The notes under the pieces: model-generated
Databases searched by the model: none
The model's input: the letters and a program-made list of their open reading frames with translations, nothing else
What the model was told of the DNA's origin: nothing
Part shown: positions 315 through 52,373 of the stretch, piece after piece
How the letters are laid out: each line of letters starts with the position of its first letter
How positions within the stretch are numbered: position 1 is the first letter of the stretch
Made by a program: the position numbers and the translations under genes
Origin: a virus
Lineage: Duplodnaviria > Caudoviricetes
Virus record (IMG/VR): IMGVR_UViG_3300037511_000152
Span: 1-56,772 of that record
DNA length: 56,772 nt
Direction: 5' to 3' (one strand)

Positions 315-325
315 GAAGTTACTTC
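315..325. repeat. GAAGTWACTTC palindrome, first of >=19 dispersed copies (315, 2590, 3544, 3809, 6237, 8557, 12361, 15086, 16949, 17458, 23402, 34530, 39744, 42689, 45696, 46230, 48055, 48820, 51449)
   Basis: Exact copies read directly in the sequence; one-mismatch variants at 8190, 8297, 24739, 49903. Confidence 0.95.
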
Positions 326-457
326 CGAGGTTTTATCAAAGCGACGCACCGCACTGCGCTACGCACGCAGCAGCACGGCACCCAGGCAGCTAGGCTATCG
401 GTAGACCGCACCTAGCCAAGGGACAGCGCCGACCCTGCATACGGATCGACGCCAAAG

Positions 458-482
458 AAAAAGCCCGGCACTCAGGCCGGGC
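458..482 (-). terminator. Rho-independent terminator ending the leftward early operon
   Basis: GCCCGGC/GCCGGGC 7-bp stem preceded by an A-run on + (U-run on -), just past the last leftward gene. Confidence 0.75.
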
Positions 483-507
483 AAAGCACAACGCGGGAGA
501 AAGCTTT

Positions 508-798
508 TCAATACTGATGCATCAACGCATCCAACGCGGCAAGCACGTTGTTTCTGTAGTCCGAGTCCTGCACCGTAGCGGCGATGGCCTCGCGCCACAC
601 AGCTACGTCTTTCACTTGGCCGACGGGCACAAGCGCGGCATGCGTCTGTAGACAATGGTCGATCAACGCCGCCTGTTGCGCGCTCAGTCCCAGCACGCAG
701 GCCGATGCCACGCCTACCAGATAAGCGGGACTCCACTTACCGCCCGTGTCCACCCTAGCCACACGGCAGGCGGACGTATCAAAGTCTTGGCAGTCCAT
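508..798 (-). CDS. hypothetical protein
   Basis: ORF with GGAGGG RBS before ATG 798, in a tightly packed leftward run. Confidence 0.6.
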   Translation of the reverse strand: MDCQDFDTSACRVARVDTGGKWSPAYLVGVASACVLGLSAQQAALIDHCLQTHAALVPVGQVKDVAVWREAIAATVQDSDYRNNVLAALDALMHQY

Positions 799-802
799 CG
801 CG

Positions 803-3269: not shown

Positions 3270-3539
3270 CTATCGGTTGTGGCACTCTTCCCTGGCTTTC
3301 AGTTCGTCCAGGTAAGCGCGGCCGGATTCCGTGGGGTAGAAGCGCGGCAAGTGCCACGCTACCGTTCTCAGGCCGTCCGGCTCCTGGCGTGTGGCGAAAC
3401 CACGGCGAACGAGACTATCAAGAATTTTGATCGTCCCGCTTTCGCAGTTCCAAAGCCAGCCGCCCGGCCATTGGCCTATCTTGCACAGCGCCCGCAAGCA
3501 TCCGATTTGCGAGGCGCCGAGTTTCTGCCCGTGTGCCAT
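3270..3539 (-). CDS. hypothetical protein, possible winged-helix
   Basis: ATG 3539; ILDSLVRRGFA...FYPTESGRAYL pattern. Confidence 0.6.
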   Translation of the reverse strand: MAHGQKLGASQIGCLRALCKIGQWPGGWLWNCESGTIKILDSLVRRGFATRQEPDGLRTVAWHLPRFYPTESGRAYLDELKAREECHNR

Positions 3540-3547
3540 CGCAGAAG

Positions 3548-3685
3548 TTACTTCGTAGCGGCTTCCACGGCTGCAATATGTGCTTGCAGAGCCGAGAAAA
3601 CCGGAGCCACGGCAGACGCGACGACTGCGGATGCGCCGACAGCGATGAAGGAAGAAAGAAGGACAGTGATAACGGCGGTTTTCAT
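3548..3685 (-). CDS. small hydrophobic membrane protein (45 aa)
   Basis: MKTAVITVLLSSFIAVGASAVVASAVAPVFSALQAHIAAVEAATK; GGAG RBS; own promoter upstream. Confidence 0.65.
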   Translation of the reverse strand: MKTAVITVLLSSFIAVGASAVVASAVAPVFSALQAHIAAVEAATK

Positions 3686-3730
3686 GATTTTTTCTCCGGT
3701 GTGTTGGTTTTCGGCATCTGCCGTAACTTG

Positions 3731-3758
3731 AGAATAGGTCGTGCCGCGAAGAATTCAA
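3731..3758 (-). promoter_or_regulatory. sigma70-like promoter
   Basis: TTGAAT-N16-TATTCT on -. Confidence 0.55.
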
Positions 3759-3767
3759 GCGCGACAC

Positions 3768-3802
3768 AAAGAAAAACGGCCTAGGCGTTTTCCCTAGGCC
3801 GT
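3768..3802 (-). terminator. Rho-independent terminator
   Basis: ACGGCCTAGG/CCTAGGCCGT 10-bp stem plus U-run on -. Confidence 0.75.
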
Positions 3803-3821
3803 AATTCGGAAGTAACTTCGT

Positions 3822-6175: not shown

Positions 6176-6204
6176 AGAATAGTAACACTGTTCAACAGTT
6201 ACAA
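6176..6204 (-). promoter_or_regulatory. sigma70-like leftward promoter with ACTGTTCAACAGT operator
   Basis: TTGTAA-N17-TATTCT; palindrome at 6187-6199. Confidence 0.7.
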
Positions 6205-6441
6205 GCAACACCGCGCCTAGGGGTTTCCCTGATCCCGAAGTAACTTCCTGCCCGCCCATGTGGCGGCGCGTCTGCCCGCTACCCCGAATCCAGTATCTAC
6301 AAGGCTTTGCAGCCCGCGACGGCCCGATAACCCGCGCCGTTGAGCCATTGTGCGCTTGGCGCCTCTTGGCGCGGCGGCCGTGATCCTGCGATTGCCCGCC
6401 AGCCCGTTACACCCAGGCCGGGCGGCCGGGCGCCGCGCCGC

Positions 6442-8054: not shown

Positions 8055-8241
8055 TCGTTTTTGACGGGCCTCCCTAGCCACCCTACGTCCCTCCTCCCGA
8101 TCGTCGAATGGCGGTCCCATCCTGCAAGCCGGAGCCGCCTCGGCACCCCGAATAGACTCTCGCCGGATTGGCTTTCGACTGCCGGCCGCGAAGCTACTTC
8201 AGACAGAAATCAAGAAATACCTCCACTCACTGCAAATCCTC

Positions 8242-8270: not shown

Positions 8271-8332
8271 GCGTTTCATCTCGCACACGCTCGTGCGAAG
8301 TAATTTCCGAATCCAGGAAAAGGAGTACCGCC

Positions 8333-8563
8333 GTGGATGCCCCGCAAATCGATTGGAATGACACAGGCAAGCTGCTGATCCTGCTGCTTGTCCTCGGCGT
8401 CCTGTTCACGGCCACGATCGTGATTGCGATTAACGTCACTTCTCGCAAGGAGACCACGACTGACGACAAACGCTGTACGTATCTTGCGCGTCTGCTGTCC
8501 AGTGAACTCAATCGCCCTGACGCGGTGGACTTGATCCGCTCGCGTTGCCTTCAATCGAAGTAA
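8333..8563 (+). CDS. single-TM membrane protein
   Basis: AGGAG RBS; hydrophobic LLILLLVLGVLFTATIVIAI. Confidence 0.7.
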   Translation: MDAPQIDWNDTGKLLILLLVLGVLFTATIVIAINVTSRKETTTDDKRCTYLARLLSSELNRPDAVDLIRSRCLQSK

Positions 8564-8578
8564 CTTCCAACTCGAACC

Positions 8579-12357: not shown

Positions 12358-12382
12358 CCCGAAGTAACTTCAAGGAGTCAAC

Positions 12383-13108
12383 ATGGAAGCCCAAACCACC
12401 ACCGATGCACCGACCTATATGGAACATGTTTTACAGGTCGAGCAGCTTTTCATGCAGCACCAATACTGGCCTGACGGCGCCAGAGAGGCCGGTAAGTACG
12501 TTGCTGCTGTCCCCGCCGATCAGATTAGCGAAGAGAATCGGGGCAAACTCATCTCGTTCATCGCCCAGTACTCGGTTCAGAAACACAACGCGACCACTTA
12601 CGATTTCTTCGAAGATGTCGAGAAGTTCAATCTTGCGGCGGGCCGTACCAACCATCGGTTCGAACCGAAGGCCATCGGGCTGCACGTCGCCCTGCAACTC
12701 GAAGAACTCCGCGAAAAGCTGGTTGCCATCTGTAAGATGTCGCCGGTATTGAACGATGACACGCACCAACTGCTCACGACCATCAACGCGATGCGTCATC
12801 TCCGCCATCTGTTCAAGGAAGGCGTGTTCACGCAAATGATCGCGGACGCCGACCCGATCGAACTCCTGGACGGCGACATCGATCTCTGCGTGGTGTCTGT
12901 CGGCTCCATGATGAGCCAAGGCGCCAACTACCAACGGGCGCTGCGCAAGGTCACGGACGCCAATCTCGCCAAGCTGGTGAACGGCATTGCTATCAAGGAC
13001 AAGGACGGCAAGATTCAGAAGCCGGACGGCTGGGCGCCGGCTGACCTGAGCGACTGCCTGCATGACGACTTCCGCGAAGACCTGGAGAGCAAATCTCTTC
13101 ACGGTTGA
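12383..13108 (+). CDS. MazG/PRA-PH-like nucleoside triphosphate pyrophosphohydrolase
   Basis: LEELRE...ELLDGDIDLCVV...VTDANLAK...KDKDGKIQKPDGW matches this family's signature. Confidence 0.8.
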   Translation: MEAQTTTDAPTYMEHVLQVEQLFMQHQYWPDGAREAGKYVAAVPADQISEENRGKLISFIAQYSVQKHNATTYDFFEDVEKFNLAAGRTNHRFEPKAIGLHVALQLEELREKLVAICKMSPVLNDDTHQLLTTINAMRHLRHLFKEGVFTQMIADADPIELLDGDIDLCVVSVGSMMSQGANYQRALRKVTDANLAKLVNGIAIKDKDGKIQKPDGWAPADLSDCLHDDFREDLESKSLHG

Positions 13109-14765: not shown

Positions 14766-14960
14766 ATGAATACGAATCTTTTGGCAGTACCGCAGTTCGC
14801 GGTGGAACAGGCCATCGAGGTTATGAAAGCCGCAGAGCAGATCGGCGGCAGCAAACAAGATGCCCGCTCCAATGCGAGAGTTTGTCTCGAAATGGCCTTG
14901 AGAGAAGGCACTCCCGAGATGTCCGAAAAGATTTACGGCGCGATCCACCCCGATACGTAA
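14766..14960 (+). CDS. small hypothetical protein
   Basis: GGAGG RBS, own promoter. Confidence 0.7.
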   Translation: MNTNLLAVPQFAVEQAIEVMKAAEQIGGSKQDARSNARVCLEMALREGTPEMSEKIYGAIHPDT

Positions 14961-15085
14961 CGCCTGCCGTACCGCAATAAAGATCAAATCGTCAACCCAA
15001 AAGGCACCCGCCGAGGGGGTTTATGCAAGAAGAGCGACTAGCCTTTCGTCGCTGTGCAGTTAAGGGGTGGTTTTAGGACGAGCCG

Positions 15086-15127
15086 GAAGTAACTTCGGCT
15101 TGACAGTGTTGAACCGTTCTTTATACT
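15086..15127 (+). promoter_or_regulatory. promoter of the ParB-like gene with GAAGTAACTTC site and operator
   Basis: Palindrome at 15086-15096 lies 3 nt before TTGACA-N16-TATACT; AGTGTTGAACCGT in the spacer. Confidence 0.75.
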
Positions 15128-15172
15128 GGAGTCTCGCAACTTTTATCAGCGACCGCTCCTCTGGAGATCATA

Positions 15173-16423
15173 ATGGCAAAAGCTCAACTCCCCGGCCTGT
15201 TTGAAGAAGAAATCAAACGAGGCAACATCACCAAAGCAATCAAGGATGCACATGCTGCGTCCGCTGAAGCTCGCTCGGCCATGGTGCCGTTCGATCAGAT
15301 TCACATCATCGACGGTCTGAACCCTCGTGTGTGGAACACGCCGGCAGTGAAGGCGCACATCGAGAATATCGGCAAGTCGATCCTCGCCAACGGTTTCTAC
15401 GACGACAAGCCCCTGGCCGTATTCGTCCGTAAGATCGATGGCGTCGACAAGATTTGCCTGCGTGACGGCCACCACCGTTACTTCGGCGCGGAATACGCCA
15501 ACAAGAAGGAGCCCGGCAAGGTCAAGGAAGTCCCTGTCGTCTTCGACGCGCAAGAGATGTCCGATGTGGACATGACCGTCTCTTTCGCTACCGGCAACAT
15601 GGGCCGCCCACTCACGCCATACGAAATGGGCGTCGTGGTGCAGCGGCTGGCGACCGAGAGCCCGACCAACCCGCACCCACTGTCGAAGAAGGAAATCGCG
15701 ACCCGACTGGCCGTGACCGAGCGCTATATCGACGACCTGGGCGTGTTGATGACGGCCTCGCCGGATGTCATCGACCTCGTGGTCACTGACCGCGTGGCGG
15801 CCACCCTGGCTATCCAGATGGTGAAGATGCACGGGGACAAGGCCGGAAAGCATCTGCTGAAGGCTGCCGAAAAGCTGGCGGCCATTGGCAAACCGGCCGG
15901 CAAGATCACGTCCAAGCATATCGAGCCGGAGGCTCGGCCGAAGAACAAGAAGTCCGCCACTGACGGCGCGAAGGGGAAGAAAGCCAACAAGACTGATCAG
16001 CAAGCCGAGGGGAAGACCTTCCAGCGCAATTTGTATTTCGATGGCGCATTGGACAGTCTTCGAGCGCTGGAAGCTCTGCGCGCCGGTCTGAGTGAGCAGG
16101 AAGCTGTGACGGTCGATGAGTCGATGAAAGCGATTCTGTCGAAGTTCGGCGACACGAAGCTGGCGAACTACGCGGTGCGCGAGGAAATCTCGGACTACGA
16201 GGAAACCGGCCTCGTCCGTCTCGGCCTCGTGGAGGTGCAGGCCGATGACCCGCCGCCCGCCAAGACCGAAGAACCCGTGAAGAAGGCGAACGGGGAGAAA
16301 CGGCAACGCAGCAGCAAGAAGGCGAAGCAAGAAGAACCGGTCAGCGACCCGCAACCCGTAACTTCTGGGGCCACGGCGGAGAAGACTCCGGAAGAGTTGG
16401 AAGCTGCTGCCGCCGATCTGTAG
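15173..16423 (+). CDS. ParB/Spo0J-like protein (CTPase-type N-domain, HTH, long charged C-terminal region)
   Basis: GLNPR, DGHHRYFGA (GxxRxxA box), N.GRPLTPYE, HTH KKEIATRLAVTERYI. Confidence 0.85.
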   Translation: MAKAQLPGLFEEEIKRGNITKAIKDAHAASAEARSAMVPFDQIHIIDGLNPRVWNTPAVKAHIENIGKSILANGFYDDKPLAVFVRKIDGVDKICLRDGHHRYFGAEYANKKEPGKVKEVPVVFDAQEMSDVDMTVSFATGNMGRPLTPYEMGVVVQRLATESPTNPHPLSKKEIATRLAVTERYIDDLGVLMTASPDVIDLVVTDRVAATLAIQMVKMHGDKAGKHLLKAAEKLAAIGKPAGKITSKHIEPEARPKNKKSATDGAKGKKANKTDQQAEGKTFQRNLYFDGALDSLRALEALRAGLSEQEAVTVDESMKAILSKFGDTKLANYAVREEISDYEETGLVRLGLVEVQADDPPPAKTEEPVKKANGEKRQRSSKKAKQEEPVSDPQPVTSGATAEKTPEELEAAAADL

Positions 16424-16448: not shown

Positions 16449-16481
16449 AGGGTGCTAGGAAAACCCTAGCACCCTCTTTTT
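16449..16481 (+). terminator. Rho-independent terminator after the ParB-like gene
   Basis: AGGGTGCTAGG/CCTAGCACCCT 11-bp stem plus CTTTTT. Confidence 0.8.
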
Positions 16482-16877
16482 ATGCCCATGAAACTCATCA
16501 TCGCAGGCAGCCGCTCAATCACCTCCATGGCAACCGTGGAGGCAGCCATCTTATGGTCTGGCTGGCGCGACCAAATTACAAAGATCGTTTCGGGCATGGC
16601 TGTCGCTGTCGATCCCGTGACTAGACAGCCCATCAAAACGGTGGATGTACTGGCCTACGACTGGGCGATCTCGCAAGGAATACCCGCCGAAAAGTTCTAC
16701 GCCAAATGGAGGTTGTACGGCTACGACGCAGGCTTCATGCGCAACGCAGAAATGGCCGCCTACGCGGATGCTCTCCTTGCCGTATGGGACGGCAGGAGCG
16801 GCGGCACCAAAGACATGATCTTCCGAGCCCGCGAACGCGGACTGCCTGTCAAGGTCTACTCCGAGGCGGGGCTGTAG
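16482..16877 (+). CDS. SLOG (YspA/DUF2493-like) family protein
   Basis: KLIIAGSRS...GMA...AGFMRNAEMA..ADALLAVWDGRSGGT. Confidence 0.85.
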   Translation: MPMKLIIAGSRSITSMATVEAAILWSGWRDQITKIVSGMAVAVDPVTRQPIKTVDVLAYDWAISQGIPAEKFYAKWRLYGYDAGFMRNAEMAAYADALLAVWDGRSGGTKDMIFRARERGLPVKVYSEAGL

Positions 16878-17064
16878 TTACGCCCTTCGCTCTAGGTAAT
16901 TACGCTAACTTGCACCACGGCTGAATTAGCCTAAGCTACCTACACACCGAAGTTACTTCGCCGCACAGACGACGAATGGGGTGGGGAAAATTTCGCGACG
17001 CTGCGTTCTGCCGCGCGCAAATCACGAGTACACCGAACAGACCGGATCAAGGAGATCAACGGCC

Positions 17065-17775: not shown

Positions 17776-18000
17776 ATGAAAATCCAGAAACTGAAAGACG
17801 CGGCAAAGTCCGCCATCAAGCCGACGCTCTACGTTCTTGCGGGCGTCCTTTTCGGCACCTCTTATTTCTTCCACTACGCGGCAAAGCATCTGTACACGCA
17901 GGAAGAAGTGCTTGACGTTGTGCAAGATGTCGCGCCTACCGCGTACAAGGCTGGGCTCGACAAAGGTTACAAGGTTTGTTCGAAGGGCAGTTCCACTTAA
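17776..18000 (+). CDS. small membrane protein
   Basis: Basic N-terminus followed by a TM helix. Confidence 0.65.
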   Translation: MKIQKLKDAAKSAIKPTLYVLAGVLFGTSYFFHYAAKHLYTQEEVLDVVQDVAPTAYKAGLDKGYKVCSKGSST

Positions 18001-37722: not shown

Positions 37723-37950
37723 TCAGAGCGGGTCGTCTTCTTCGGTCTTCTTCACAACGGCCTTCGGCGCCGAAGGAACTTCGACCTTTTCCAGCGCCAT
37801 CGTCCCTTCGGGTGCGAGGGCTTCTTTGTTCAGGCGCATGATGTCGTCGATTTCAGACTGGGTGAAGTCAAACGACTGATCGGGCAGCACGTGGAGCATC
37901 TTCCCCTTGCGGGAAACGATGATCCGTTGTCGAGCGGTACGTTCGGGCAT
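37723..37950 (-). CDS. small protein after the capsid gene (gpFI-like position)
   Basis: AGGAG RBS; synteny. Confidence 0.7.
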   Translation of the reverse strand: MPERTARQRIIVSRKGKMLHVLPDQSFDFTQSEIDDIMRLNKEALAPEGTMALEKVEVPSAPKAVVKKTEEDDPL

Positions 37951-39574: not shown

Positions 39575-40879
39575 TTAAGCGTCGAGCTTCTTGCCGTGTG
39601 CCTTGGCCTGCGCGGCCAGGATGCGGTTAGAAGGCTTGGCTGCGGCTTCTTCGGTGGTCTTGGCGCCGGTATTGGCGGTCACGCCAGCGCCGCCGTCACG
39701 GTCCATAGCAGCACGGAAGCCCGTGTCGCCTGCCGGCGCTTCGGAAGTAACTTCCGGGGCCGAAGCGGTCAAGATGGCCTTGGCGTCTTCCACCGACAGA
39801 TCGGTGTTCATCGCCAGATGCGAAGCCAGCTTCGACTTGCCCTTGGCTTCTTCACAGCTTGTGATGGCGGACATGCGGGCGCGTTCGGCACTTTTCGCTT
39901 CGGCTTGCGCCTTGGCGATGTCCTCGGCAGTCAGGGCGGCCTTACCGTCGCCCGGCTTTTCGGTCGTTGTCATGCTGATCCCCTTTTGGGTGGTTGAGCC
40001 GGATAGCTCGGTAATGAACGCCGAGATTGCCGCTTGCGGAGTGGCGATCTCGTCGATGAGGCCCAGTTTGAGCGCGTCGTCGGCATTGTATGTCAAAGCC
40101 TCGGTGTCGCGAACAGCCTGGGCGTCCATCCCGCGATTTTCTGCAACCACGGAGACGAACTTATCGTAGGACTTGTTGACGTTGCCCTGAATGCGCTTGG
40201 CAACGTCGGCCGGCAAGTCCTGGAACATGTTGCCGTCCACCTTGTGAGCGCCGGCATGGATGAAGCTGATGTTGATGCCATTTTTCTCCAGCAGCCCTTG
40301 CACCGAGGCGTGCATCACAACGACGCCCACGGAGCCGGCGCCTGCGGACGGGGCGGCTACCACCTTGGTGGCTGAAGACGCGATGGCATAGCCGGCGGAA
40401 TAGGCGGCCGAATCGATGATCGCCATCGACGGCTTCTCGGCGCGCGAAGCTAGGATATCCGCGCACAACTCGAAGCAGCCTGCGGCCTCTCCGCCATTCG
40501 AATTCAGATCGAACACGATGCCCTTGACGTCCGGATCGGCCAGGGCTGCCTGCATCTGGTTGCGGATGAAGTTGTAGCCCGTGACACTGCCCCACGAGGA
40601 CGAGAACCGGTTCAGGAGCGTACCCCAGACCGGAATAATAGCCAGCCCTTCCTGGAAGGCGAACGGCTTGTCCGGCGGGTTGTTGCCGTTAAAACCGTAG
40701 GCCATGCGGACGTTGTTCGGGCCGTTGCGCTTGCAGGCCTCGTGCTCCAGGCTGTCGTCGGACTCCTTCAGCGTATGGAAAAGCTGAAGGGCATACTCAC
40801 GTGTCACGAGGTGAGGCGAAATCAGGGCCTCATGGAGGTTGAAGCGCCCCAGTACCTCGGTAGCCATTTTCATGCTCAT
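39575..40879 (-). CDS. prohead protease (S49) with C-terminal scaffold
   Basis: D.NS.GGEA.G, AYSAGYAIAS, GSVGVV, V...RG motifs. Confidence 0.9.
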   Translation of the reverse strand: MSMKMATEVLGRFNLHEALISPHLVTREYALQLFHTLKESDDSLEHEACKRNGPNNVRMAYGFNGNNPPDKPFAFQEGLAIIPVWGTLLNRFSSSWGSVTGYNFIRNQMQAALADPDVKGIVFDLNSNGGEAAGCFELCADILASRAEKPSMAIIDSAAYSAGYAIASSATKVVAAPSAGAGSVGVVVMHASVQGLLEKNGINISFIHAGAHKVDGNMFQDLPADVAKRIQGNVNKSYDKFVSVVAENRGMDAQAVRDTEALTYNADDALKLGLIDEIATPQAAISAFITELSGSTTQKGISMTTTEKPGDGKAALTAEDIAKAQAEAKSAERARMSAITSCEEAKGKSKLASHLAMNTDLSVEDAKAILTASAPEVTSEAPAGDTGFRAAMDRDGGAGVTANTGAKTTEEAAAKPSNRILAAQAKAHGKKLDA

Positions 40880-42518: not shown

Positions 42519-42764
42519 TCAGAAGGTGAAACCGAGAGGCCGCTGCGGAAGCGGCGCATTACCGGTTGCAGTGGCGCCGCACACACTGTCGAGAGCGGAC
42601 ACCCAGTCCTTCAGTGCCTGAAGATTGGCAGCGCTGTACTCCACCCGCTCGCCGTTCTGATCGACGAAGACGCGAACTTGCTGCCCCAGAAGTAACTTCC
42701 GCAGAGCAGCCTTCGCGGCAACCAGATCGGCCGGGCAGGTATCGGGGTCGACGATGTATGCCAC
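42519..42764 (-). CDS. head-to-tail joining protein (gpW-like)
   Basis: A...LL.G...V.DQNGERVEY..AN...L; GTG start with AGGAG RBS. Confidence 0.85.
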   Translation of the reverse strand: MAYIVDPDTCPADLVAAKAALRKLLLGQQVRVFVDQNGERVEYSAANLQALKDWVSALDSVCGATATGNAPLPQRPLGFTF

Positions 42765-42782: not shown

Positions 42783-44966
42783 TTAAGCCAGTGCTGAACC
42801 AAATTTGCCGAAATCATAGGCCCCTTTCGAATCCTGTGCAAACCTTTTGTTGCCGTCCGGGGCCGTCACCAAAGCGTTCTTATCCCACTCGGCAGCCCAG
42901 ACCGGCGGGTTGTTCCAATCCAGGGTGTCGGCCTTGATGAACTGGGAGGCACAGAAGCCCAGCACGTAGTAGCACAAATCCCAGGCTTCGTTCCGTGCGC
43001 TGTTAGGGTTCAGCCAGCCTTTGCCCGTGTCTCGGTGCTCCGCGCACATCTCGACGTAGAAGTTATCTGGAAGCCACCCGGGGAAATGGAACATCCCGTG
43101 GGTCGGCACAACACAATCCAGCCGGCCGTTCAAGTCATCTTTCAGCATGTTGGAATTAAGCAACAGAACACCCACGTCGCCACGGGCCGCTGCAAATTTG
43201 TCTTTCCGCTGGGCGTCTGGATACGTTAGTCGTGCGCGCGGGAGCGCCACCTTGGGGTCGCCCTTCAGAAGCTGAAACCGGCCCGAATAGCCAACGAGTT
43301 CCGGCATGTCCTGCGGCGGGTTGCGCAGTCGACGAACGAAGTTGTACGCGTTGGTGGTCACGCCCTCTTTACCGCCTGAGTCACACCCCATCAGTTTGAT
43401 CTGCATGCGTCGGCCGGAGCCATCGGCCAGTGGGTAGGTCTTGTCGAGGCATTGGAAGATCAGTTCGTCCCAGTCTTCTAGATAGCTGTGCGGCTTGACC
43501 CAATCGTGATCGCCGTCCGCGTCCAGGCGTTTGCTCTTTCGAATATCGAATCGATCTATGACCCTCACGTCGAATGGCGTCCCCGGGCAGATGCCAAACA
43601 CTTGAACGACGAACATGTTTTTCTGAACGTCAGCCATCGCCAGCAGGAAACGAACGTCATGCGGAACTTCGCGATAGTCGGCTGGCTTATCGCCCAGGGG
43701 TTCGGCGCGCGACTTCAGGACTTCGGGCAGGCGAGAGTCGATCAAGCCGCGATATTTGTATGGCTCTCCAAGGTCGGTGTTGTAGAACTTCTTCAACGCC
43801 TCTTGAGAGCCAGTCTTTTGGAACTCTTCATCGGCGTTGAAGAAGTTCATCAGAAGTTCCTTCCACGTGACAAACGCCGCCACGACCCCTTTGAGCCAGA
43901 AGGACGCGATCTTCGAGCGGAAAGGCTCGCCCGTGATCTCGCCGCCCTGGTGAATCTCCTGCCCGTCCTTAATCCACACACCGCGCTTATCAATGTCCTT
44001 GCGCATGTCCGGCAGAATATTGAACGAGCAGCATGGGCATTCCATGTAGACGCTCTCCGCGCGCGCCAGCTTATCCTTTTTCTTTTCGTCCCACTTCAGC
44101 ATAGTGAACTCGGGCTCGAACCAGGACTTGCAGTCAGGACACTCCCAGTAGCGGCGGCGGCGGTCTCCACGGTTATACAGCGCCAAGATTCCTTGAACTG
44201 GAGGCGCTTCATGCCGCGTGCTCGCGATCCACGTCTTGGCTTTCTCTGGCTCAAACTCGCGTGATGGGCTGGACTCCGCCAAGGTCATCGCGTACGAGCC
44301 GAACGTCGTGCCCCGCTTCGAGGCGAGATCGTAAGGCGAGCCTTCGCCGTCGATATCGTCTTCCATGCGGTCGTAGTCCGTCAGCCCCACCAGAGGGATC
44401 GGACGCCCTGCGAATTCAGCCACGGAAGGCCACGAGAGCGTGAGGATGATGCCACTCACGTAGTGCTTGTCGAACTTGTTGTCCGTATCCCGCGACTTCT
44501 TCAGTTGAGCGCCGACTTCCGGGCTGTGACGGTGCAGACGGTCAATACGTCGCGTAGAGAAGTCGCGCGCCATCGCCTGTGACGGGTTGTAGATGATCAT
44601 GTCCATCGGATTCACCTTCACCACATAGGTGATCCAATTGATCAGCAGAGCATCCGTCTTGCCGCACTGCGCCGGCCCGACAAACACACAGCCCTTGTAG
44701 TCGCGAGACGCCAGCACATCCATCGGCTCTTGCATATACGGCGTCATGTCGTTGCGCCACGGGCCGCTGTACGAGCCCGGGTTGTTCAAGACACGATATC
44801 TCTCGGCCGCCTCAGAGACAGACAGGCGTTCGATAGGCTGGAAAAGCGGTACCGCCAGTTCTACGACGATCTGGCCCAGGCTGGCATACCCATGGGCCGC
44901 GCTATAGTCCTGCTGCCCGTTCGTCGAGGTCGTCGAGGTCTGGGTCGAAGTCTCCATTTCCTCCAT
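42783..44966 (-). CDS. terminase large subunit (lambda gpA family)
   Basis: PAQCGKT Walker A, ESSP, CPDC/CPCC, RNEAWD; start uncertain (44966 or 44957). Confidence 0.95.
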   Translation of the reverse strand: MEEMETSTQTSTTSTNGQQDYSAAHGYASLGQIVVELAVPLFQPIERLSVSEAAERYRVLNNPGSYSGPWRNDMTPYMQEPMDVLASRDYKGCVFVGPAQCGKTDALLINWITYVVKVNPMDMIIYNPSQAMARDFSTRRIDRLHRHSPEVGAQLKKSRDTDNKFDKHYVSGIILTLSWPSVAEFAGRPIPLVGLTDYDRMEDDIDGEGSPYDLASKRGTTFGSYAMTLAESSPSREFEPEKAKTWIASTRHEAPPVQGILALYNRGDRRRRYWECPDCKSWFEPEFTMLKWDEKKKDKLARAESVYMECPCCSFNILPDMRKDIDKRGVWIKDGQEIHQGGEITGEPFRSKIASFWLKGVVAAFVTWKELLMNFFNADEEFQKTGSQEALKKFYNTDLGEPYKYRGLIDSRLPEVLKSRAEPLGDKPADYREVPHDVRFLLAMADVQKNMFVVQVFGICPGTPFDVRVIDRFDIRKSKRLDADGDHDWVKPHSYLEDWDELIFQCLDKTYPLADGSGRRMQIKLMGCDSGGKEGVTTNAYNFVRRLRNPPQDMPELVGYSGRFQLLKGDPKVALPRARLTYPDAQRKDKFAAARGDVGVLLLNSNMLKDDLNGRLDCVVPTHGMFHFPGWLPDNFYVEMCAEHRDTGKGWLNPNSARNEAWDLCYYVLGFCASQFIKADTLDWNNPPVWAAEWDKNALVTAPDGNKRFAQDSKGAYDFGKFGSALA

Positions 44967-45603: not shown

Positions 45604-47289
45604 TCACAGCAAATCTTCCTCGTCAGCAAACACGTCGTCTTTGAACGACGAAACGGCTTTGCGGAGGTATGCGATAGCGCGGTCAGGATCGTCGCGAAGT
45701 AACTTCAGGTAGTGCATGAATTCTTCATGGCCTTCTTTTTTCTGTGCTTGTGCGGCCCACACCAATTCCTCGGCGGTATTGAGTACCCGAGGCATGTGGA
45801 TCGACACGAGATACTCCTGCCCCTGGCGCGCGAGTCGGCGAATCAGTTGCAGGAACAACTCCAAAGAGTCAAACGGATCAAAGAGATACAGATGGTGCCC
45901 GCCTGCCTGCATGTTCAGCCCGTAGGCATTAGACGCTGGATGAAAGAACATCATCTGTATCTTGCCTTTCTTCCAGTCGCCTAGCAGTTTGCCCTCTTTA
46001 TCCATCGTCTTAGCAAACGGGAATGCTGCCTTAAGGCGGTCGAGCGAGGATTTAAACCAGTACGCCACGAGAATGTTTTGCCCGCATTCTCGCAGTTCCT
46101 CGTACAGGCTTTCGAGGTCTTCGATCTTGAGGTCGTGAACGTGATGCGTCACTTTCTGCTTCTTCAAGGAACCATGAATCTTCGGGTCCGGGACCATCAC
46201 GGTTTCGTACACGGCGCCGCTGCAAAGCTGAAGTAACTTCTGGCGCTGGTCTGCCGCGTTCTCCGCGAGAATCTTCACTCCCGAAGGTAGCTCCAGGACG
46301 AACTGCTTCTCGAATTTGCGGTACATATCCATCTGCTCTTTCGCCAGGGAAAGCCGGCGCTGGATGAACCAGGGCTCCGCCAAATCAAGATAGTCCTTCG
46401 CCTCCATTACCAAGCAGATCGGCGCGATGAGCTTCAGGATTTCCTCCTTCGCCCCCGGCCGCAGGCTGTATTTGCGCTTGTACTCGTTGTAGGTGAAATA
46501 CTTGTCGCGGAAATACTTGATGGAGCGCGAGAACCGTTCACCACCGTCGAGCAGATAGATTTGCGCGAACAGATCGAGATACGATTCCGGCGCGGGTGTG
46601 CCGGTCAAAATGTGCAACCGAGTGATGTACTTCCGCGCCCACTTGAGAGCCTTGAACCGGTCTGTGCGATAGTCCTTAAAGTTCGAGGACTCATCCACGA
46701 TCACAGTCTTGAACGGCCATTTGGTGCCGAACATCTTCCAGAGCCAATACACCCGCTCACGGTTGATGATGTGCATACACGCGGGCGTCTTGGCGAGCCG
46801 CAGCATGATGGCTTCCTTCTGCGCCGTCTCCGCTGCTGACCGTTCCCCTGCCAACCACTCAGAGCCGTCAGGCATGTCGATATAGAACGCCTTTACTTCT
46901 TCGACCCGGGCACGCCCCGCAGCTTTGATCTCTTCCTTCCAGCAGTCGTCCTCGGCGCGTATGACGATGTGCGATAGGTGCGCCAGATGCTCCCAAATCG
47001 GAATTTCGTTCGGCCACGTTTGCGTGGCGACCTTGAGCGGCGCGATCACCAAGATAGGGCCGTCCTCTCCAGAGTCGATGATCTGCTCGACGAGCCGAGC
47101 TATGACTGTGAGCGAGATACAGGTCTTGCCGAGACCTGGGTCGAGGAACAGGCCTGAGAAAGGATTCTCCCAGAGGAAATCGACGGCCGTGTCCTGGTAG
47201 ACGTGCATGTCCTCCTCGCCGTACTCCACGAGTTCGAACATACGCGCCACGTCACGCGCAATCACCTTCTGTTCAGTAGAGAACACCAA
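45604..47289 (-). CDS. SNF2-family helicase
   Basis: LDPGLGKT, VDESS, LTGTP, GLNMQ, RLARQGQ. Confidence 0.9.
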   Translation of the reverse strand: MVFSTEQKVIARDVARMFELVEYGEEDMHVYQDTAVDFLWENPFSGLFLDPGLGKTCISLTVIARLVEQIIDSGEDGPILVIAPLKVATQTWPNEIPIWEHLAHLSHIVIRAEDDCWKEEIKAAGRARVEEVKAFYIDMPDGSEWLAGERSAAETAQKEAIMLRLAKTPACMHIINRERVYWLWKMFGTKWPFKTVIVDESSNFKDYRTDRFKALKWARKYITRLHILTGTPAPESYLDLFAQIYLLDGGERFSRSIKYFRDKYFTYNEYKRKYSLRPGAKEEILKLIAPICLVMEAKDYLDLAEPWFIQRRLSLAKEQMDMYRKFEKQFVLELPSGVKILAENAADQRQKLLQLCSGAVYETVMVPDPKIHGSLKKQKVTHHVHDLKIEDLESLYEELRECGQNILVAYWFKSSLDRLKAAFPFAKTMDKEGKLLGDWKKGKIQMMFFHPASNAYGLNMQAGGHHLYLFDPFDSLELFLQLIRRLARQGQEYLVSIHMPRVLNTAEELVWAAQAQKKEGHEEFMHYLKLLRDDPDRAIAYLRKAVSSFKDDVFADEEDLL

Positions 47290-47551
47290 TCGCCTCCGTC
47301 AAGCTGTGCCACACGTAGCATCGCGCCCCGTGAGCCTCCATTTCTTCGCGCCGCATGACTTGGTGCTCGTCCTCTTCTTCTCCAGGGCGCTTGATCTCAG
47401 GCCAGATAACTTTACCGTTGCGGATCATTACGCGATCCATCACGCCTTTCCTGCCCGGAGAAACGAACTTGCCGACCCACCAACCGCGTGACTCGGCATA
47501 GCTGCAAATCTCCTTCTCGACCTTCGATTCCCTCGTTTTATCCGTTGGCAC
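47273..47551 (-). CDS. VRR-NUC domain nuclease
   Basis: ES.VE...K.VSPGR.GV.DR...EIKRPG...Q. Confidence 0.85.
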   Translation of the reverse strand: MPTDKTRESKVEKEICSYAESRGWWVGKFVSPGRKGVMDRVMIRNGKVIWPEIKRPGEEEDEHQVMRREEMEAHGARCYVWHSLTEAIGVLY

Positions 47552-48074
47552 GCGCCTCTCCCCTGAGGATACGGATGCAATGCCCTACGTCAAAGCCATT
47601 CTCCCTAGCGAACTTCGCAACTTGCCCGCGCGACATGCCTCTGATCGCCATCACGGTAGTCGTCGATAGCTTGGCGTTCGGGTGTTTCTCTCCTTCCGGC
47701 ATAGTCCCGTGCTTCCGCTTATCCGCCATGTTGCCTTTCGGCGTGTCGTAGCGCAAATTGCCAGAGTGATTGCACGATGACACACCATTCCGATGACAGA
47801 TATGCGCGCCCGCCGGCCGCTTCCCCTTGAAGGCGTGAGCCACGAGGTCGTGCACCCATCGCTTGGACTTCTTGTTATTACGCCAAAGGAAAACAGCGAT
47901 ATAACCACCGTATTCGTACAGGCGCAGCATAGCGCCCTTTATCGTCTTTACGTGTCCGTTCACTTGCGTGATCTGACGGGTTAGCGAGCGTACGCGACCA
48001 CGGTTGGACACTTCGTAGAGCCCTTTGTACCCGACGACATGGGTCCATTTCTCGGAAGTAACTTCAGACATCAT
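47538..48074 (-). CDS. NUMOD4-HNH homing endonuclease
   Basis: W..V.GY.GLYEVSN.GRVRS, VH.LVA.AF, H.NG...N...NL.Y.T...N. Confidence 0.9.
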   Translation of the reverse strand: MMSEVTSEKWTHVVGYKGLYEVSNRGRVRSLTRQITQVNGHVKTIKGAMLRLYEYGGYIAVFLWRNNKKSKRWVHDLVAHAFKGKRPAGAHICHRNGVSSCNHSGNLRYDTPKGNMADKRKHGTMPEGEKHPNAKLSTTTVMAIRGMSRGQVAKFARENGFDVGHCIRILRGEARANG

Positions 48075-48077: not shown

Positions 48078-50267
48078 TCAGTCCTTTCGATAGAAAATCC
48101 ACTCGGCGCCTGCTGCGTTGAGCGGGATATCCTGCCCCCACCAAGGAAGGCGAATCATGCACTCGCGCAGCTTTGCGACGCTGTGGTACTCGTCGTCCTC
48201 GTCCTCGATACAGTTGATTTCATCGTGCACATGAAAACGGATGTCGAATCCTTCCTCGTCAGCAGCAAAGAGACCTAGTTGCAGTATGTCTCGCGCGATG
48301 GCTTGCACGAGGTTTTCAGTCATCTTTCCGCCGTGAGAGTCGATCCGAACCCATTTCCGCGTGTCCTGATCCATCCCCATGTATGTCAGGTTGATACGAG
48401 TGTAGGTCTTCGGTTCGCCGGTCTTCTGATCGATAACAGGCTTTCCGGTCTCTTTGTCCAGCGAGATGAACGTCTTCTTCTCAAGCTTGGGCTTGTAGTA
48501 ATAGAGCCGCCGGCCGGAGGGTAGAATGGCGCACAGGAAAGGCTTGCGAAGTTCGAACGTCACAGGACCGACCGAATGCTCGTTACCTGTGCGGATCGTC
48601 GCAGCAATGGCGGACTCAAGGTCGTACCAAAGCTGAGGAATCTCGGGGTATGTCTCACGGAAGATTTCCACCGAACGGGCCGATTCCTTCTGGGTCATCT
48701 TCACGCCCATGTTCTCGGCGTAGCCCCAAAGCCCGGTTTTCTTCCCTGCCCGCTCGGTGCCTCCGCCCAGGCGATATCCGGCGCCCAGGGTAGCGGGTTT
48801 CGACATCTTGCGCTGGTGCGAAGTAACTTCGTCGTAAGGAACGTTGAACAGTCGAGTGGCGAAGTCCTTGTAGGCGTCGCGACCTTCACGGAAAACGTTC
48901 AGCAACCGTTCGCACCCGGACAGCCACCCGATTACGACCGATTCAATCGAGGCCAAGTCGCAGGAGCGGATAATCTTTCCTTCCGGCGCTCTGACGACCC
49001 CGCGCACGCACCCCGCGATCAAATCCATCGGCTCCTTGGCGAGAAGCTGGATCATACCGTAGTCGTTCTCGCGGATGGCATCGGTAGCCGCCACAAGCCA
49101 GATGTCGGACTTGTCATGCGCCTCAAGGAATTTAGGCGTACTATGCAAGTTCTGCATCTGCACACCGCGTCCGGAGTATCGAAGCGTCCGCGCCGCGCCT
49201 CCGAACTTTATGCTGTGCCGGAACATGTAGCCCGGGCCGAGCTTCTTCGTAAAAGCGGAATACTTGGAGACCGACGTTCGAGAGGCTTGGCGCCGCGCCT
49301 TGAGCATCCGATAGCACGAAGCCGTGATGCCAGGGGTCTTGTAGCTAACCGGCGTGTCGAAAACAATGTCGTCTTCTACGACCAAGGAATCGTCCTTCTC
49401 AGGGGCTAAGCCGTGTTCCTTGCAGTATGCCTCGTGCTCGTCGATAACCTTCATTACCGACGCCTTTTCCAGGTCAGCAAAGCGGTAGCCGCGATCTTTG
49501 AGCCAGGGTAGAAGCTGGTTGCGGGAGTTTGGGTTAGCAAGGCCCGTTTCAGCCTTCATCATCTTGATGATCTCGGCCTTGCGCATCGCTGCCAGTGCGG
49601 TAGCATTCTCAGCCATGGTGACATCGACCGGGATGCCCCTGTCGTTGATCTTCTGATCGAGTGCGTATTCGGCCCACGCCGTATCCCAGATTGGGAATCT
49701 CTCCAACCGGCTCCAGACTTCGAACTCAGAAACCTCATCCTGCACGTTGTAACCGCAGAACCGCTCCCATTCCTCCGGGTCGGTCGTCCAATCGCGCCAG
49801 CGAAGCTGCTGGTTTTTCGTGATCCGCTGAGGTTGACAGAACAGTTTGATGAGTCGGCCACCTGCGGGGTCTTTGATTTTATCGAGCGGTAGGCACATCT
49901 GCGAAGCAACTTCGGCGAGGCTTCCGGTGAAGCTGTGCATCGCGGCTTTCGCCATCGTGCAGCGCCACTCTTCGTAGCGCGTAGGAATCTTCGCCACGTC
50001 ACGCGTAATGCGACGTTCGAACTCGGCGTTGAAGGCGACCTTGAGGATTCCACGGTCTGCCAGAGCTTCCCGAAGTTCAATAGGCATGCGGCTGCCCATC
50101 GAAAGGTCCCAGCTTCCTCGTTCAGAGGTTTCCCCGTCAACGACGATGCGCCACGCGGCCATCAGGATGCGCGTCGACGGGTCCGAGGCGTAGGCGTCCA
50201 GACCGCGTTGAACGAGGTCTACTTCGCTCGCTGTTTCGTAGTCAAGATGGAGGCGGATTTCCTGCAT
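48078..50267 (-). CDS. DNA polymerase, family A, with 3'-5' exonuclease domain
   Basis: DYET, AFNAEFE, YNVQD (exo); DLASIE, R...K...LG.GY, HVHDE (pol motifs A/B/C). Confidence 0.95.
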   Translation of the reverse strand: MQEIRLHLDYETASEVDLVQRGLDAYASDPSTRILMAAWRIVVDGETSERGSWDLSMGSRMPIELREALADRGILKVAFNAEFERRITRDVAKIPTRYEEWRCTMAKAAMHSFTGSLAEVASQMCLPLDKIKDPAGGRLIKLFCQPQRITKNQQLRWRDWTTDPEEWERFCGYNVQDEVSEFEVWSRLERFPIWDTAWAEYALDQKINDRGIPVDVTMAENATALAAMRKAEIIKMMKAETGLANPNSRNQLLPWLKDRGYRFADLEKASVMKVIDEHEAYCKEHGLAPEKDDSLVVEDDIVFDTPVSYKTPGITASCYRMLKARRQASRTSVSKYSAFTKKLGPGYMFRHSIKFGGAARTLRYSGRGVQMQNLHSTPKFLEAHDKSDIWLVAATDAIRENDYGMIQLLAKEPMDLIAGCVRGVVRAPEGKIIRSCDLASIESVVIGWLSGCERLLNVFREGRDAYKDFATRLFNVPYDEVTSHQRKMSKPATLGAGYRLGGGTERAGKKTGLWGYAENMGVKMTQKESARSVEIFRETYPEIPQLWYDLESAIAATIRTGNEHSVGPVTFELRKPFLCAILPSGRRLYYYKPKLEKKTFISLDKETGKPVIDQKTGEPKTYTRINLTYMGMDQDTRKWVRIDSHGGKMTENLVQAIARDILQLGLFAADEEGFDIRFHVHDEINCIEDEDDEYHSVAKLRECMIRLPWWGQDIPLNAAGAEWIFYRKD

Positions 50268-50360
50268 TTCGTCACCAGAGAAAAAGAAGCCCGAGATGTC
50301 TCCACCCCGGGCTTCAAAGCTGCCGCCGTCAGCGTCCCTTCCGACGACGGCCCTGAGACG

Positions 50361-50996
50361 TTACAGACCGCTGTCGTCGTCTTCGTCGAAGCCAGAGGAC
50401 TCGCCGCCATCTTCGTAGCTCTCGAATGCCTCGTCGGCGTCTTCCTCGCTGATGCGCTCTTCCCCGAAGCTGACACCATCATCCTTGACGAATTGCACGG
50501 CCAGGAGCGAAGCATTGACACGCTTGCCGTGCTTGTTGTCCTGCCACCATGGCTTGATGAGCATATTGACGATGCCGCCCGCGAAGAACACACGTGCCGC
50601 ATCTTCCGGCTTCACGGTGCGATTGCGAGCGTCACGCAGGATCGGTGGCTTCTCCTCGACCTCGGAGGCCGACAGAGCCCACATGCCGTCATACTCGTCC
50701 TTGGCCTTCAGATCACCGTCCTTGGCGAACTTCTTGTCAGCCGGAATCTTCTTGCCGTCGTTGCGTTCGGCCAGGATTGCGTCGATGCGCTTGACGCACA
50801 TCTTCAACACATCACCATGCGTTTTCTTGTCGGCGAGGCCGGTCATTGAAAATTTCTTCGGCGACTCGGGATCGTCATCGTCAACACGCTTGGGCTTGCC
50901 GAGATGCGGATAGCTGGCACGAACGCCCTTGATGAGCATGCAGCCGTCGGTGTACAGCACTACGTTGCTTGTCTGTTCTTTGATTTCGCGGGCCAT
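50361..50996 (-). CDS. single-stranded DNA-binding protein (DUF2815-like)
   Basis: VR.SYP.L..P, L.AVQF..D...FG, acidic tail. Confidence 0.85.
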   Translation of the reverse strand: MAREIKEQTSNVVLYTDGCMLIKGVRASYPHLGKPKRVDDDDPESPKKFSMTGLADKKTHGDVLKMCVKRIDAILAERNDGKKIPADKKFAKDGDLKAKDEYDGMWALSASEVEEKPPILRDARNRTVKPEDAARVFFAGGIVNMLIKPWWQDNKHGKRVNASLLAVQFVKDDGVSFGEERISEEDADEAFESYEDGGESSGFDEDDDSGL

Positions 50997-51017
50997 GGTG
51001 GTCTCCGGTTTCGCTGG

Positions 51018-52373
51018 TTACAGGTCTTCTGCCGTGAGGTCGCTGAAAACTTCATCAGCCACGGCGTCAAGTGGTTGCCGGGGGTCCGACAACGGCACTA
51101 GGGTAGCGCGCCCGCGCGGTTTGTCAACGTGCGGAGCGAGCAGCTTCACAGCTTCGCCACGACGAAAGCCGGCTTCGACAAGCGCGTCTTCCGCCTGAGC
51201 GGGTGAAGCAAATGACAGTTTGTACAGACTGAGCGTGTCGACGCCCTGTTTATGCAGAAATCGTTCTGCCGCCTTCTGATTCTTGAACACTCGGTTGGTC
51301 CGCGCCTCGACAAGTTTCTGGCCTGGAACCGGCTCTCCGCGCAGCGCGCGACGGTCCAACTCGGCTTCCACATCACGGAACCAACTCTCCACGATCCCTC
51401 GATAGGCGACCAAACGGCTGAGGTGCAGCGTGCTGAGTTCGCCGGGTGGAAGTAACTTCGGAGCGTACAGGCCCACCTCCAAAGCGTCCTTCACCTCTTC
51501 CATCCGCTCGATAGAGGTCTCAACGTCGTCGAAAACCGAACCGTTCAACTCCTCCATCGCTGCCGCGAACGCCGCGCATGTGCCCTTCACGCGGCACCAT
51601 TGGCAGCCTTTTTCCGAGACGCGTCGAGGGGCATTCTCCTGCCACGCGAGGGCGGCACGCTCTTTCACCCACGCCGCAAAATCGAGCAACTGTCCAACCG
51701 TCGTTTCCCAGGTCTGGAAGTGCCCCAAACGCGGTTGGCAAATACGGATGCGTATGTACTTGATGTCGTCCCGTTCGGCTTTGGACAGAGACCGGTAAAA
51801 ACCGTAGGCGTACAGCAGCGCCTGAGTGTTGCCGTTCAGCTTGATCGGGTTGTCGAACTCATCGCGCCAACACCAAGCAGGCTCATTCAGGTCTTCAGCC
51901 GCATAAACGATGACGCCTTTTCCGAACTTCAAGTCGGTAACAGTGATCGTGCGGCCAAAGATGGCGCCATGATCGGACGTTCCGCCTTGCTTCGGGATGG
52001 GGGTGAGGTCGCTGAACCAAACCTTCGTCTCGGTGTAGTGATCGCCCTCACATTCCATGCACCAGTCGACGTACAACTCGACGTAATCGAGCATCGAGTT
52101 CGTGATCTCGATCGTCCAGCCATCGACCTCCATGGTGGTGCCGACCAAGTGTTTAGGCCGAACGCCCGTTTTTAGCCAGTGCTCAGCGACGTGATGCGCG
52201 ACAGTGCCTTCAGCGGCTTCTTCGCCTGCGTCGTCTTTCGCTGTAAGGTTCGGGAGGAGGGAGCCGGCACACCAGAGCCACATTGCGCTAGAGGACGGCG
52301 AAAAGATAGAGTGACCACCCGCCAGGATGTCGTACTTCTTCGCTCCGAGGTCGACAGGTGGTTTGATTTTCAT
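51018..52373 (-). CDS. Cas4-like PD-(D/E)XK exonuclease (DUF2800)
   Basis: HS.FSPS...W..C.GS, EGT..H, GTSD, DLKFGKG, Q...YA.G, CQWC...C. Confidence 0.9.
   Translation of the reverse strand: MKIKPPVDLGAKKYDILAGGHSIFSPSSSAMWLWCAGSLLPNLTAKDDAGEEAAEGTVAHHVAEHWLKTGVRPKHLVGTTMEVDGWTIEITNSMLDYVELYVDWCMECEGDHYTETKVWFSDLTPIPKQGGTSDHGAIFGRTITVTDLKFGKGVIVYAAEDLNEPAWCWRDEFDNPIKLNGNTQALLYAYGFYRSLSKAERDDIKYIRIRICQPRLGHFQTWETTVGQLLDFAAWVKERAALAWQENAPRRVSEKGCQWCRVKGTCAAFAAAMEELNGSVFDDVETSIERMEEVKDALEVGLYAPKLLPPGELSTLHLSRLVAYRGIVESWFRDVEAELDRRALRGEPVPGQKLVEARTNRVFKNQKAAERFLHKQGVDTLSLYKLSFASPAQAEDALVEAGFRRGEAVKLLAPHVDKPRGRATLVPLSDPRQPLDAVADEVFSDLTAEDL

Follow-up and report, generated by a model that had tools for sequence, protein, structure and literature searches.

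The window examined here is a stretch of viral DNA of 56,772 nucleotides (nt), analysed as a whole (positions 1–56,772 of the IMG/VR virus record IMGVR_UViG_3300037511_000152; Duplodnaviria, Caudoviricetes), with an estimated completeness of 92%. It represents a BcepNazgul-like phage (Casjensviridae): the window is collinear with Burkholderia phage BcepNazgul, has the same gene order, and its large terminase shows 56–59% identity to the BcepNazgul protein. A megablast search of named phages with 24 kb of the window gave no match. Among the sequencing runs listed, two contain the sequence, both as contigs, and no RNA run is among them. Genes include those for a lambda-type terminase, a family A DNA polymerase, an SNF2 helicase, a DUF2800 exonuclease and a primase–polymerase. 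Two features concern us: an 11-bp palindrome, GAAGTWACTTC (where W is A or T), which is dispersed through the window in 19 exact copies, and a gene for an orphan ParB/KorB-like protein. We found that selection acts on the palindrome as a DNA word and that, in the phage sequences compared, the array co-varies with the recognition helix of the protein. We propose, with a probability of roughly 70%, that the copies are binding or loading sites of this protein. The features are as follows (+ and − denote the strand).

15173–16423 (+), orphan ParB/KorB-like protein, 416 amino acids (phrog_1033, Foldseek, AlphaFold2)
15100–15127 (+), promoter-like TTGACA-16-TATACT before the ParB-like gene, an 11/12 consensus match
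315–325, exact site (GAAGTTACTTC), near the left end; the open reading frame (ORF) there is doubtful
2590–2600, exact site, intergenic, between a gene stop codon and an intrinsic terminator (2558–2583, −); 15-bp palindrome
3544–3554, exact site, within ORF 3270–3767 (−), E-V-T-S phase
3809–3819, exact site, intergenic, directly upstream of a terminator (3776–3802, −)
6237–6247, exact site, intergenic, about 35 nt upstream of a promoter-like TTGTAA...TACTAT (−)
8557–8567, exact site, 11 nt 5′ of the start codon at 8579, just before the ribosome-binding site
12361–12371, exact site, adjoining the ribosome-binding site of gene 12383–13108 on its upstream side
15086–15096, exact site, 87 nt before the ATG of the ParB-like gene, beside the −35 element of its promoter
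16949–16959, exact site, intergenic, upstream of gene 16981–17745
17458–17468, exact site, within gene 16981–17745, E-V-T-S phase; 15-bp palindrome
23402–23412, exact site, within gene 23164–23865 (−)
34530–34540, exact site, tape-measure gene, N terminus; identical position in BcepNazgul
39744–39754, exact site, head protease gene; identical position in BcepNazgul, other codons used in AH2, G008 and G013; 15-bp palindrome
42689–42699, exact site, head–tail adaptor gene, K-L-L phase
45696–45706, exact site, SNF2 helicase gene
46230–46240, exact site, SNF2 helicase gene, codons for KLLQ
48055–48065, exact site, codons 4–7 of gene 47538–48074 (−)
48820–48830, exact site, DNA polymerase A gene; identical position in BcepNazgul and G019
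51449–51459, exact site, DUF2800 exonuclease gene; identical position in BcepNazgul
8190–8200, one-mismatch site (GAAGCTACTTC)
8297–8307, one-mismatch site (GAAGTAATTTC)
24739–24749, one-mismatch site (GAAGTTATTTC), in a region without exact sites
29867–29877, one-mismatch site (GAAGTTCCTTC)
33061–33071, one-mismatch site (GAAGGAACTTC)
37772–37782, one-mismatch site (GAAGGAACTTC)
43853–43863, one-mismatch site (GAAGTTCCTTC)
49903–49913, one-mismatch site (GAAGCAACTTC), a variant that is enriched in relatives too
53356–53366, one-mismatch site (GAAGTTCCTTC)

An earlier note, made from these letters alone, had listed the 19 exact copies, four one-mismatch copies (8190, 8297, 24739 and 49903) and extensions to 15-bp palindromes at 2588, 17456 and 39742. 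Every one of these was recovered at its position, and five further one-mismatch copies were added (29867, 33061, 37772, 43853 and 53356). The 19 exact copies compare with a mean of 0.03 in dinucleotide shuffles, 0 of 100 of which reached 19, and the 28 sites with at most one mismatch (19 exact and 9 with one mismatch) compare with 0.60 expected. GAAGTWACTTC and its sub-words were the sole strongly enriched words in an unbiased k-mer scan of the window.

The position of the copies relative to genes points in the same direction. Eight of the 19 sites fall outside the gene set, although only around 10% of the DNA is non-coding (binomial P = 3 × 10−4); sites occupy the available gaps between genes in the early regions and lie within genes in the late region. 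The codon-preserving shuffle that the earlier note had suggested left little of the in-gene array: 11 copies in the window, against a mean of 0.25 and a maximum of 2 in 300 synonymous-codon shuffles in which all proteins were kept. These 11 copies fall in the E-V-T-S (7 copies) and K-L-L (4 copies) phases and are spelled with codons that are rare in this genome, where third positions are about 72% G+C. The helicase peptide KLLQ is kept in 8 of 9 relatives (G005 was unaligned), and its AAG TTA CTT spelling occurs only in the window and BcepNazgul. From the copy numbers relative to shuffles, the codon phases and the KLLQ spelling, we conclude that selection acts on the DNA word itself. In 16 of the 19 sites the + strand has A at the centre, a bias that arises largely because of coding: a K-L-L site with A on the coding strand would create a TAA stop codon, and the E-V-T-S phase prefers GTT to GTA (GTT is on the coding strand in 5 of the 7 such sites). 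Centre bases are mixed in relatives, without an A bias.

The array recurs in other phages. Relatives of the ParB-like protein in IMG/VR were found by an alignment scan, a single-protein scan having returned none. GAAGTWACTTC is present in 13 of the 29 IMG/VR records that encode such a relative, with at least two copies in 12 of them. BcepNazgul has 18 copies, the cultured Erythrobacter phage vB_EliS-R16L has 19, and four IMG/VR relatives with a completeness of 98–100% have 18, 20, 22 and 23; no copies were found in G008 (100% complete) or in the temperate phage AH2. The hosts of motif-bearing phages are Beta- and Alphaproteobacteria. In the genomes of subfamily 2, GAAGCAACTTC and GAAGTSACTTC are also enriched. 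Five of the eight coding-site positions compared are kept in BcepNazgul, and only the polymerase site (one of the eight) is common to any subfamily-2 genome. Across array genomes, 30–40% of sites lie outside predicted genes and the remainder use all three codon phases. The number of sites per genome is therefore steady while their places change, which argues for selection for the array as such. Sites are spaced more regularly than expected at random in G019 and G029 and, above all, in Sphingomonas phage Carli, introduced below. A tyrosine integrase was matched in none of the nine array genomes (including the window, by profile search) and is present in the array-free AH2, G008, G001 and G002.

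The protein at 15173–16423 matches phrog_1033 (‘ParB-like partition protein’) with an E value of 2.7 × 10−40. An AlphaFold2 model based on 18 relatives, with a mean predicted local distance difference test score (pLDDT) of 74, comprises a strand-rich N-terminal domain of the ParB/Srx type, a helix-turn-helix (residues 172–193; helices 172–179 and 183–193), a disordered linker, a helical C-terminal domain and a disordered tail that is rich in lysine and acidic residues. The recognition helix, TERYIDDL, spans approximately residues 182–193. The top Foldseek match of the model is RK2 KorB (8qa9; E = 1.2 × 10−8; template modelling score of 0.67 on the target). Noc and chromosomal ParB proteins rank next. 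Among the matches listed, those with E ≤ 10−3 are KorB, Noc, ParB/Spo0J and pNOB8-like ParB-N chains, and PadC, sulfiredoxin (Srx) and serine kinase (SerK) folds rank far lower. The N-terminal fold is thus recognized by structure and, by sequence, through the PHROG match only. The central helix-turn-helix that characterizes the ParB, KorB and Noc family is present in the model and in the Pfam matches of relatives: P0010 and P0016 match KorB (23.2 and 24.6 bits; cut-off of 22.3) and P0008 matches HTH_ParB.

A C-terminal dimerization domain, another family feature, is present as a prediction. The homodimer model has a symmetric interface at residues 286–325 and a score of 0.51, compared with 0.02 for the best of three controls; at least 66% of contacts agree between runs, with a pLDDT of at least 73. 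Of proteins with solved structures, 20 of 30 homodimers but only 1 of 23 single chains attain this mark. This result may reflect likeness to solved dimers of the ParB family, although no chain in the Protein Data Bank (PDB) is detectable by sequence.

The word follows the protein in several comparisons. The start of the recognition helix reads T-x-R-Y-[IL]-[DY]-D in all 13 readable array-bearing proteins and in that of R16L, and differs in 16 of 18 array-free rows (AY, KY, FY, SR, NY, TY, AF, QR or GY). The two array-free exceptions that start with R-Y, L009 and L010 (RYLDDL and RYLQDL), come from integrase-bearing elements that hold 1–3 near-sites with typical flanks. Carli encodes a long ParB with the helix RHLNN and has no GAAGTWACTTC; it has instead 39 copies of GAAA-N3-TTTC, mainly GAAATSATTTC and GAAACGATTTC, at a spacing (coefficient of variation (CV) of 0.41) that none of 5,000 random placements matched in evenness. 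L127, a metagenomic locus with the helix RMVNN, has 15 copies of GGAAA-N3-TTTCC in 20.5 kb. An R-x-x-N-N helix in Carli and L127 is thus set against R-Y-x-D-D in the GAAG class. In a tree of ParB proteins, a single clade of weak support (84 in the Shimodaira–Hasegawa-like approximate likelihood ratio test) unites Carli and L127 with all 14 proteins of the GAAG class.

The distribution of the word also follows the presence of the gene. The earlier note had reasoned that a motif equally abundant in relatives without the ParB gene would count against its reading. In five Casjensviridae-type relatives in which the protein has no match (SS2019XI, MA11, FoX4, phiAxp-2 and Enc34), there are 0–1 copies of even the relaxed motif GAAGNNNCTTC, compared with 26 in the window, so the reading withstood this check. 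In a tblastn comparison of gene content, the Nazgul-like genomes with and without arrays were told apart by just two genes of the window, those for the polymerase type and for the long form of the ParB-like protein. In its terminase, portal and capsid proteins, the window resembles the array-free AH2, G008 and G013 (52–59% identity) more than the array-bearing phages of subfamily 2 (44–51%).

These comparisons bear on the possibility that another phage DNA-binding protein, such as a small and fast-evolving regulator, reads the palindrome, and that the ParB-like gene merely co-travels with it in the early module. The tblastn comparison (E = 10−4) would miss short divergent proteins of this kind; the array-bearing ParB proteins may form one clade, which would allow for co-inheritance; and the polymerase type (DNA polymerase A, 48078–50267) also travels with the arrays, by co-inheritance or through a functional link with the ParB-like protein: it is found in every array-bearing Nazgul-like genome, that of Carli included, and is undetectable in AH2, G008 and G013. 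However, Carli keeps this polymerase type although its motif differs, whereas the changes of word, in Carli and L127, coincide exactly with changes of the ParB helix. No second predicted DNA-binding protein was common to all array genomes by tblastn, and a word that is conserved at 11 of 11 positions while proteins are 40–50% identical implies a well-conserved reader that tblastn would detect. We consider a different phage reader unlikely.

It is slightly less likely that the protein acts chemically at the sites, either as a targeting or activator subunit of a base-modifying enzyme or as a nicking nuclease, with the sites serving as marks. Passages of one report describe phage ParB homologues that activate thymine dioxygenases (PMC13229309), the DGHHR motif of the window protein resembles that of non-CTPase ParB/Srx enzymes, and a gene named ‘cysteine dioxygenase’ by PHROGs (17976–18860) lies 1.5 kb downstream of the ParB-like gene. 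That gene has no Pfam match, gained only automatic names and no family from the ESM Atlas, and occurs also in the array-free AH2, G008 and G013. The ParB-dependent 5mYOX pathway has a TET/JBP enzyme encoded together with ParB; no TET/JBP dioxygenase (PF12851, E ≤ 1) was matched anywhere in the window, and neither N6/N4 nor C5 methyltransferases were found there. In addition, the ParB proteins described in those passages of PMC13229309 have no DNA-binding domain, whereas the window protein has a helix-turn-helix.

About as unlikely is a host protein that binds the palindrome and that the phages recruit or titrate by accumulating the word. Burkholderiales genomes hold slightly fewer copies of the word than of its reversed control, which could mean that the word is functional there. 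However, 7 of 8 host-type genomes (2–9 Mb) show no enrichment, holding 0–4 copies compared with 1–15 copies of the reversed control. The eighth, a metagenome-assembled genome (MAG) of Rhizobium, holds 12 copies; the contigs that carry them are all small and are probably pieces of phage genomes. The same word is used by phages of Burkholderia and of Erythrobacter, Carli infects a sphingomonad, as R16L does, and yet uses a different word, and the Casjensviridae-type relatives without a ParB match are also without the word.

A hairpin in RNA or single-stranded DNA (a processing or pausing signal) is highly improbable: the word is palindromic, some copies extend to 15 nt and three stand just before terminators, but the stem would have only 4–5 pairs with a loop of 1–3 nt, all ten arm positions are fixed rather than co-varying, and pairing is disrupted in one-mismatch variants that are enriched, such as GAAGCAACTTC.

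Four other candidates were rejected. A strand-polar element (nick sites, or Chi-like or KOPS-like sequences) is at odds with the coding explanation of the A bias, the mixed centres of relatives and host-type genomes without the word. A peptide-level cause does not account for two codon phases in the window and three in relatives, or for codon shuffles that remove the sites. As for terminase or cos repeats, the word of the window is dispersed, and the enriched word of AH2 is of a different kind, clustered at the genome ends. In AH2 (L007 and L008), this word, AGGTCCGAAT(A), occurs nine times in all, grouped at the two ends (189–215 and 57569–58021), probably as terminase-binding sites near cos. 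AAAG-N3-CTTT in G022 and L114 was considered as a third specificity; many copies read AAAGGAACTTTCAT and may be ribosome-binding or start contexts, and they were not counted as support.

Taken together, the tracking of the helix by the word, its absence where the gene is missing, the lack of a host motif, the KorB/ParB fold and the predicted dimer support the proposal of the earlier note that the ParB-like protein reads the palindrome; the part of that proposal that invoked clamp loading and coating of the genome stands as an analogy. Several observations weigh against the protein as reader or as a ParB of the usual kind. It has no Pfam match even at E = 1, PF02195 (ParB_N) included, and a sequence-profile search of the PDB gave no match. 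At the strand–helix junction where ParB CTPases have GERR it has DGHHR (residue 98; D98, G99 and R102 are invariant across 18 relatives, giving D-G-x-x-R), and neither the GERRxR arginine patch nor a canonical cytidine triphosphate (CTP) motif was found in it. The ParA-binding motif [LFI]G[KR]G[LFI] was not found. Site spacing in the window is no more even than chance (CV of 0.84 compared with 0.93; fraction of 0.34), and a site near the ParB gene is found only in the window, BcepNazgul and G022, with none in six other array genomes. The tblastn table could miss small, fast-evolving DNA-binding proteins. The motif-bearing proteins may have a single origin (the tree needs two changes, and one is possible), so the link between helix and motif is partly phylogenetic inertia, and decisive contrasts are few (Carli, L127 and L009/L010). 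We nevertheless infer that the ParB-like protein binds the palindrome. As there is no Pfam ParB_N match and DGHHR replaces GERR, it is by inference only that we extend this to CTP binding, clamp loading and coating of the genome; with no ParA-binding motif either, clamp behaviour would be an analogy to ParB.

The ParB family comprises segregation clamps of chromosomes and plasmids, and KorB is a plasmid-wide regulator. RK2 reportedly has 12 OB operators. RK2 KorB/OB resembles the window in that a replicon of about 60 kb carries one short palindrome in dispersed copies, both promoter-proximal and distal; KorB, acting as a CTP clamp, reaches promoters as far as 1.5 kb away by sliding (PMC11790492). 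The window protein shares with KorB, its top structural match, the ParB fold and a central helix-turn-helix, but it has DGHHR rather than the GERR patch. Unlike RK2, the window is a virulent-looking phage and not a plasmid, has no ParA/IncC match, and the phage arrays consist of approximately 19–40 sites of a different word, many of them in genes. The absence of ParA, asserted in the earlier note, agrees with the lack of a PF13614 match in the window (PF01656 was outside the search); neither a cognate ParA nor a ParA-binding peptide, which together with ParB define ParABS, was found.

Chromosomal ParB–parS and Noc–NBS systems, which are CTP-dependent clamps, also combine an N-terminal plus DNA-binding fold, a palindromic site and a C-terminal dimer (predicted for the window protein). 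Noc has many dispersed sites. The window protein differs from both in that the ParA-binding motif, the Pfam ParB_N match and GERR are absent from it, and its sites are not clustered near an origin. The stoperators of cluster A mycobacteriophages are a further parallel: tens of short sites across the genome, also inside transcription units, with one phage reader. Stoperators, however, are asymmetric sites that follow the direction of transcription, and their reader is the immunity repressor of temperate phages, whereas the window site is palindromic, no integrase was found, and the putative reader is of the ParB/KorB type. The ParB-dependent thymine dioxygenases offer a case of a phage ParB homologue without its usual partner and with a role other than segregation, as described in passages of PMC13229309; those ParB proteins, however, act together with a TET/JBP enzyme, of which the window has no match, and have no DNA-binding domain.

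In the mechanism that we propose, a dimer of the ParB-like protein, joined by the C-terminal domain, would use its pair of helix-turn-helix motifs to read the two GAAGT half-sites. Selection would keep some 19 strong and 9 weaker sites across the genome, in intergenic gaps where these are present and in genes elsewhere. More speculatively, the protein may spread or slide from the sites, possibly driven by nucleotide as in KorB and ParB, and so cover or organize the phage chromosome; equally speculative is that, at sites beside early promoters, including its own, it may regulate transcription as KorB does. Nucleotide dependence, spreading and biological purpose are speculative, being drawn by analogy. 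We favour a dimeric site-binder that acts over the whole chromosome and has local promoter effects. As a kind of finding, this would amount to a KorB/OB-like network that moved into virulent-looking phages and expanded to a genome-wide array.

A more ambitious form of this idea, which we hold tentatively and consider less probable than its alternatives combined, is that integrase-less Nazgul-like phages have a private chromatin. The 20–40 sites, one every few kb, would load a partner-less protein of the ParB/KorB type that coats or compacts the chromosome, marks it as self for replication or packaging, or shields it from host nucleases. With the loss of lysogeny, the few-site regulator of temperate relatives would have given rise to the dense arrays, and word and helix would then have co-evolved.

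The main texts of the literature searched held no description of such arrays in phages. The words palindrome, ParB and repeat are all absent from the paper on AH2 and KL1 (PMC3483164). Passages of an Erythrobacter phage paper mention the ParB/Srx gene in passing (PMC12185513), and passages of a survey of the ParB fold note orphan phage ParB proteins without giving their sites (PMC12704722). If correct, our reading would assign the ParB fold a new role in phages, be it the marking, compaction or protection of the genome or global timing, in a setting where no ParA was found and no KorA either, although no search aimed at KorA was made. The system lends itself to direct tests, as it is present in three cultured phages (BcepNazgul, Erythrobacter phage R16L and Sphingomonas phage Carli), and it comes naturally in two specificities: GAAG half-sites with a D-D helix and GAAA half-sites with an N-N helix. 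Orthogonal protein–site pairs could serve as DNA-labelling tools of the ParB/parS type.

Several observations concern the sites and their surroundings. The palindrome at 15086 ends 3 nt before the −35 hexamer of the promoter of the ParB-like gene. Autoregulation as a general feature was rejected, as only the window, BcepNazgul, G022 and, with a near-site, G005 have a site within 400 nt upstream of the ParB gene. Three strong terminator-like hairpins have a stem that contains CCTAGG (2558–2583, −; 3776–3802, −; and 16449–16475, +), two of which lie 7–8 nt downstream of a palindrome copy. The sequence TGTTGAAC stands in the spacer of three promoter-like sequences downstream of palindromes (2527–2534, −; 6190–6197, −; and 15107–15114, +); its total of four copies is a weak enrichment, reached in 9 of 100 shuffles. 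Each of three more distant ParB-like variants is surrounded by 5–6 dispersed copies of its own palindrome: CGTCCAAATTTGGACG at L093, ACTTTTG-N3-CAAAAGT at L115 and GCTGA-N4-TCAGC at L124. In G017, 21 tandem copies of an 18-bp unit containing CCGGACACC occupy 14840–15208.

Further observations concern the protein and its neighbours. ParB-like proteins of subfamily 2 (for example, L037 and R16L) have long tails rich in lysine, alanine and proline, resembling histone H1, in the C-terminal 100 residues; these end in a conserved acidic ...LPPxV...D(I/L), and the shorter tail of the window protein ends in ...AAADL. The gene immediately 5′ of the ParB-like gene in Erythrobacter phage R16L (L078, 2672–2971) is annotated as DUF2312, which we take to be the GapR family of nucleoid-associated proteins. 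Plasmid homologues, which cover about half of the protein (N-terminal domain plus helix-turn-helix) at 30–38% identity, were found in 108 plasmid records, mostly large plasmids of Pseudomonas and Xanthomonas. Flanking the region of the ParB-like gene in the window are genes for a MazG-like nucleotide pyrophosphohydrolase (phrog_671; 12383–13108) and a small SLOG/YspA-like protein (16482–16877; PF10686, below the cut-off). The protein encoded at 13156–14082 matches PHROG 6247 (‘DNA topoisomerase’; 2.8 × 10−120) and, weakly, DUF2399 (0.00032, below the cut-off), and is common only to the window, G005 and G019.

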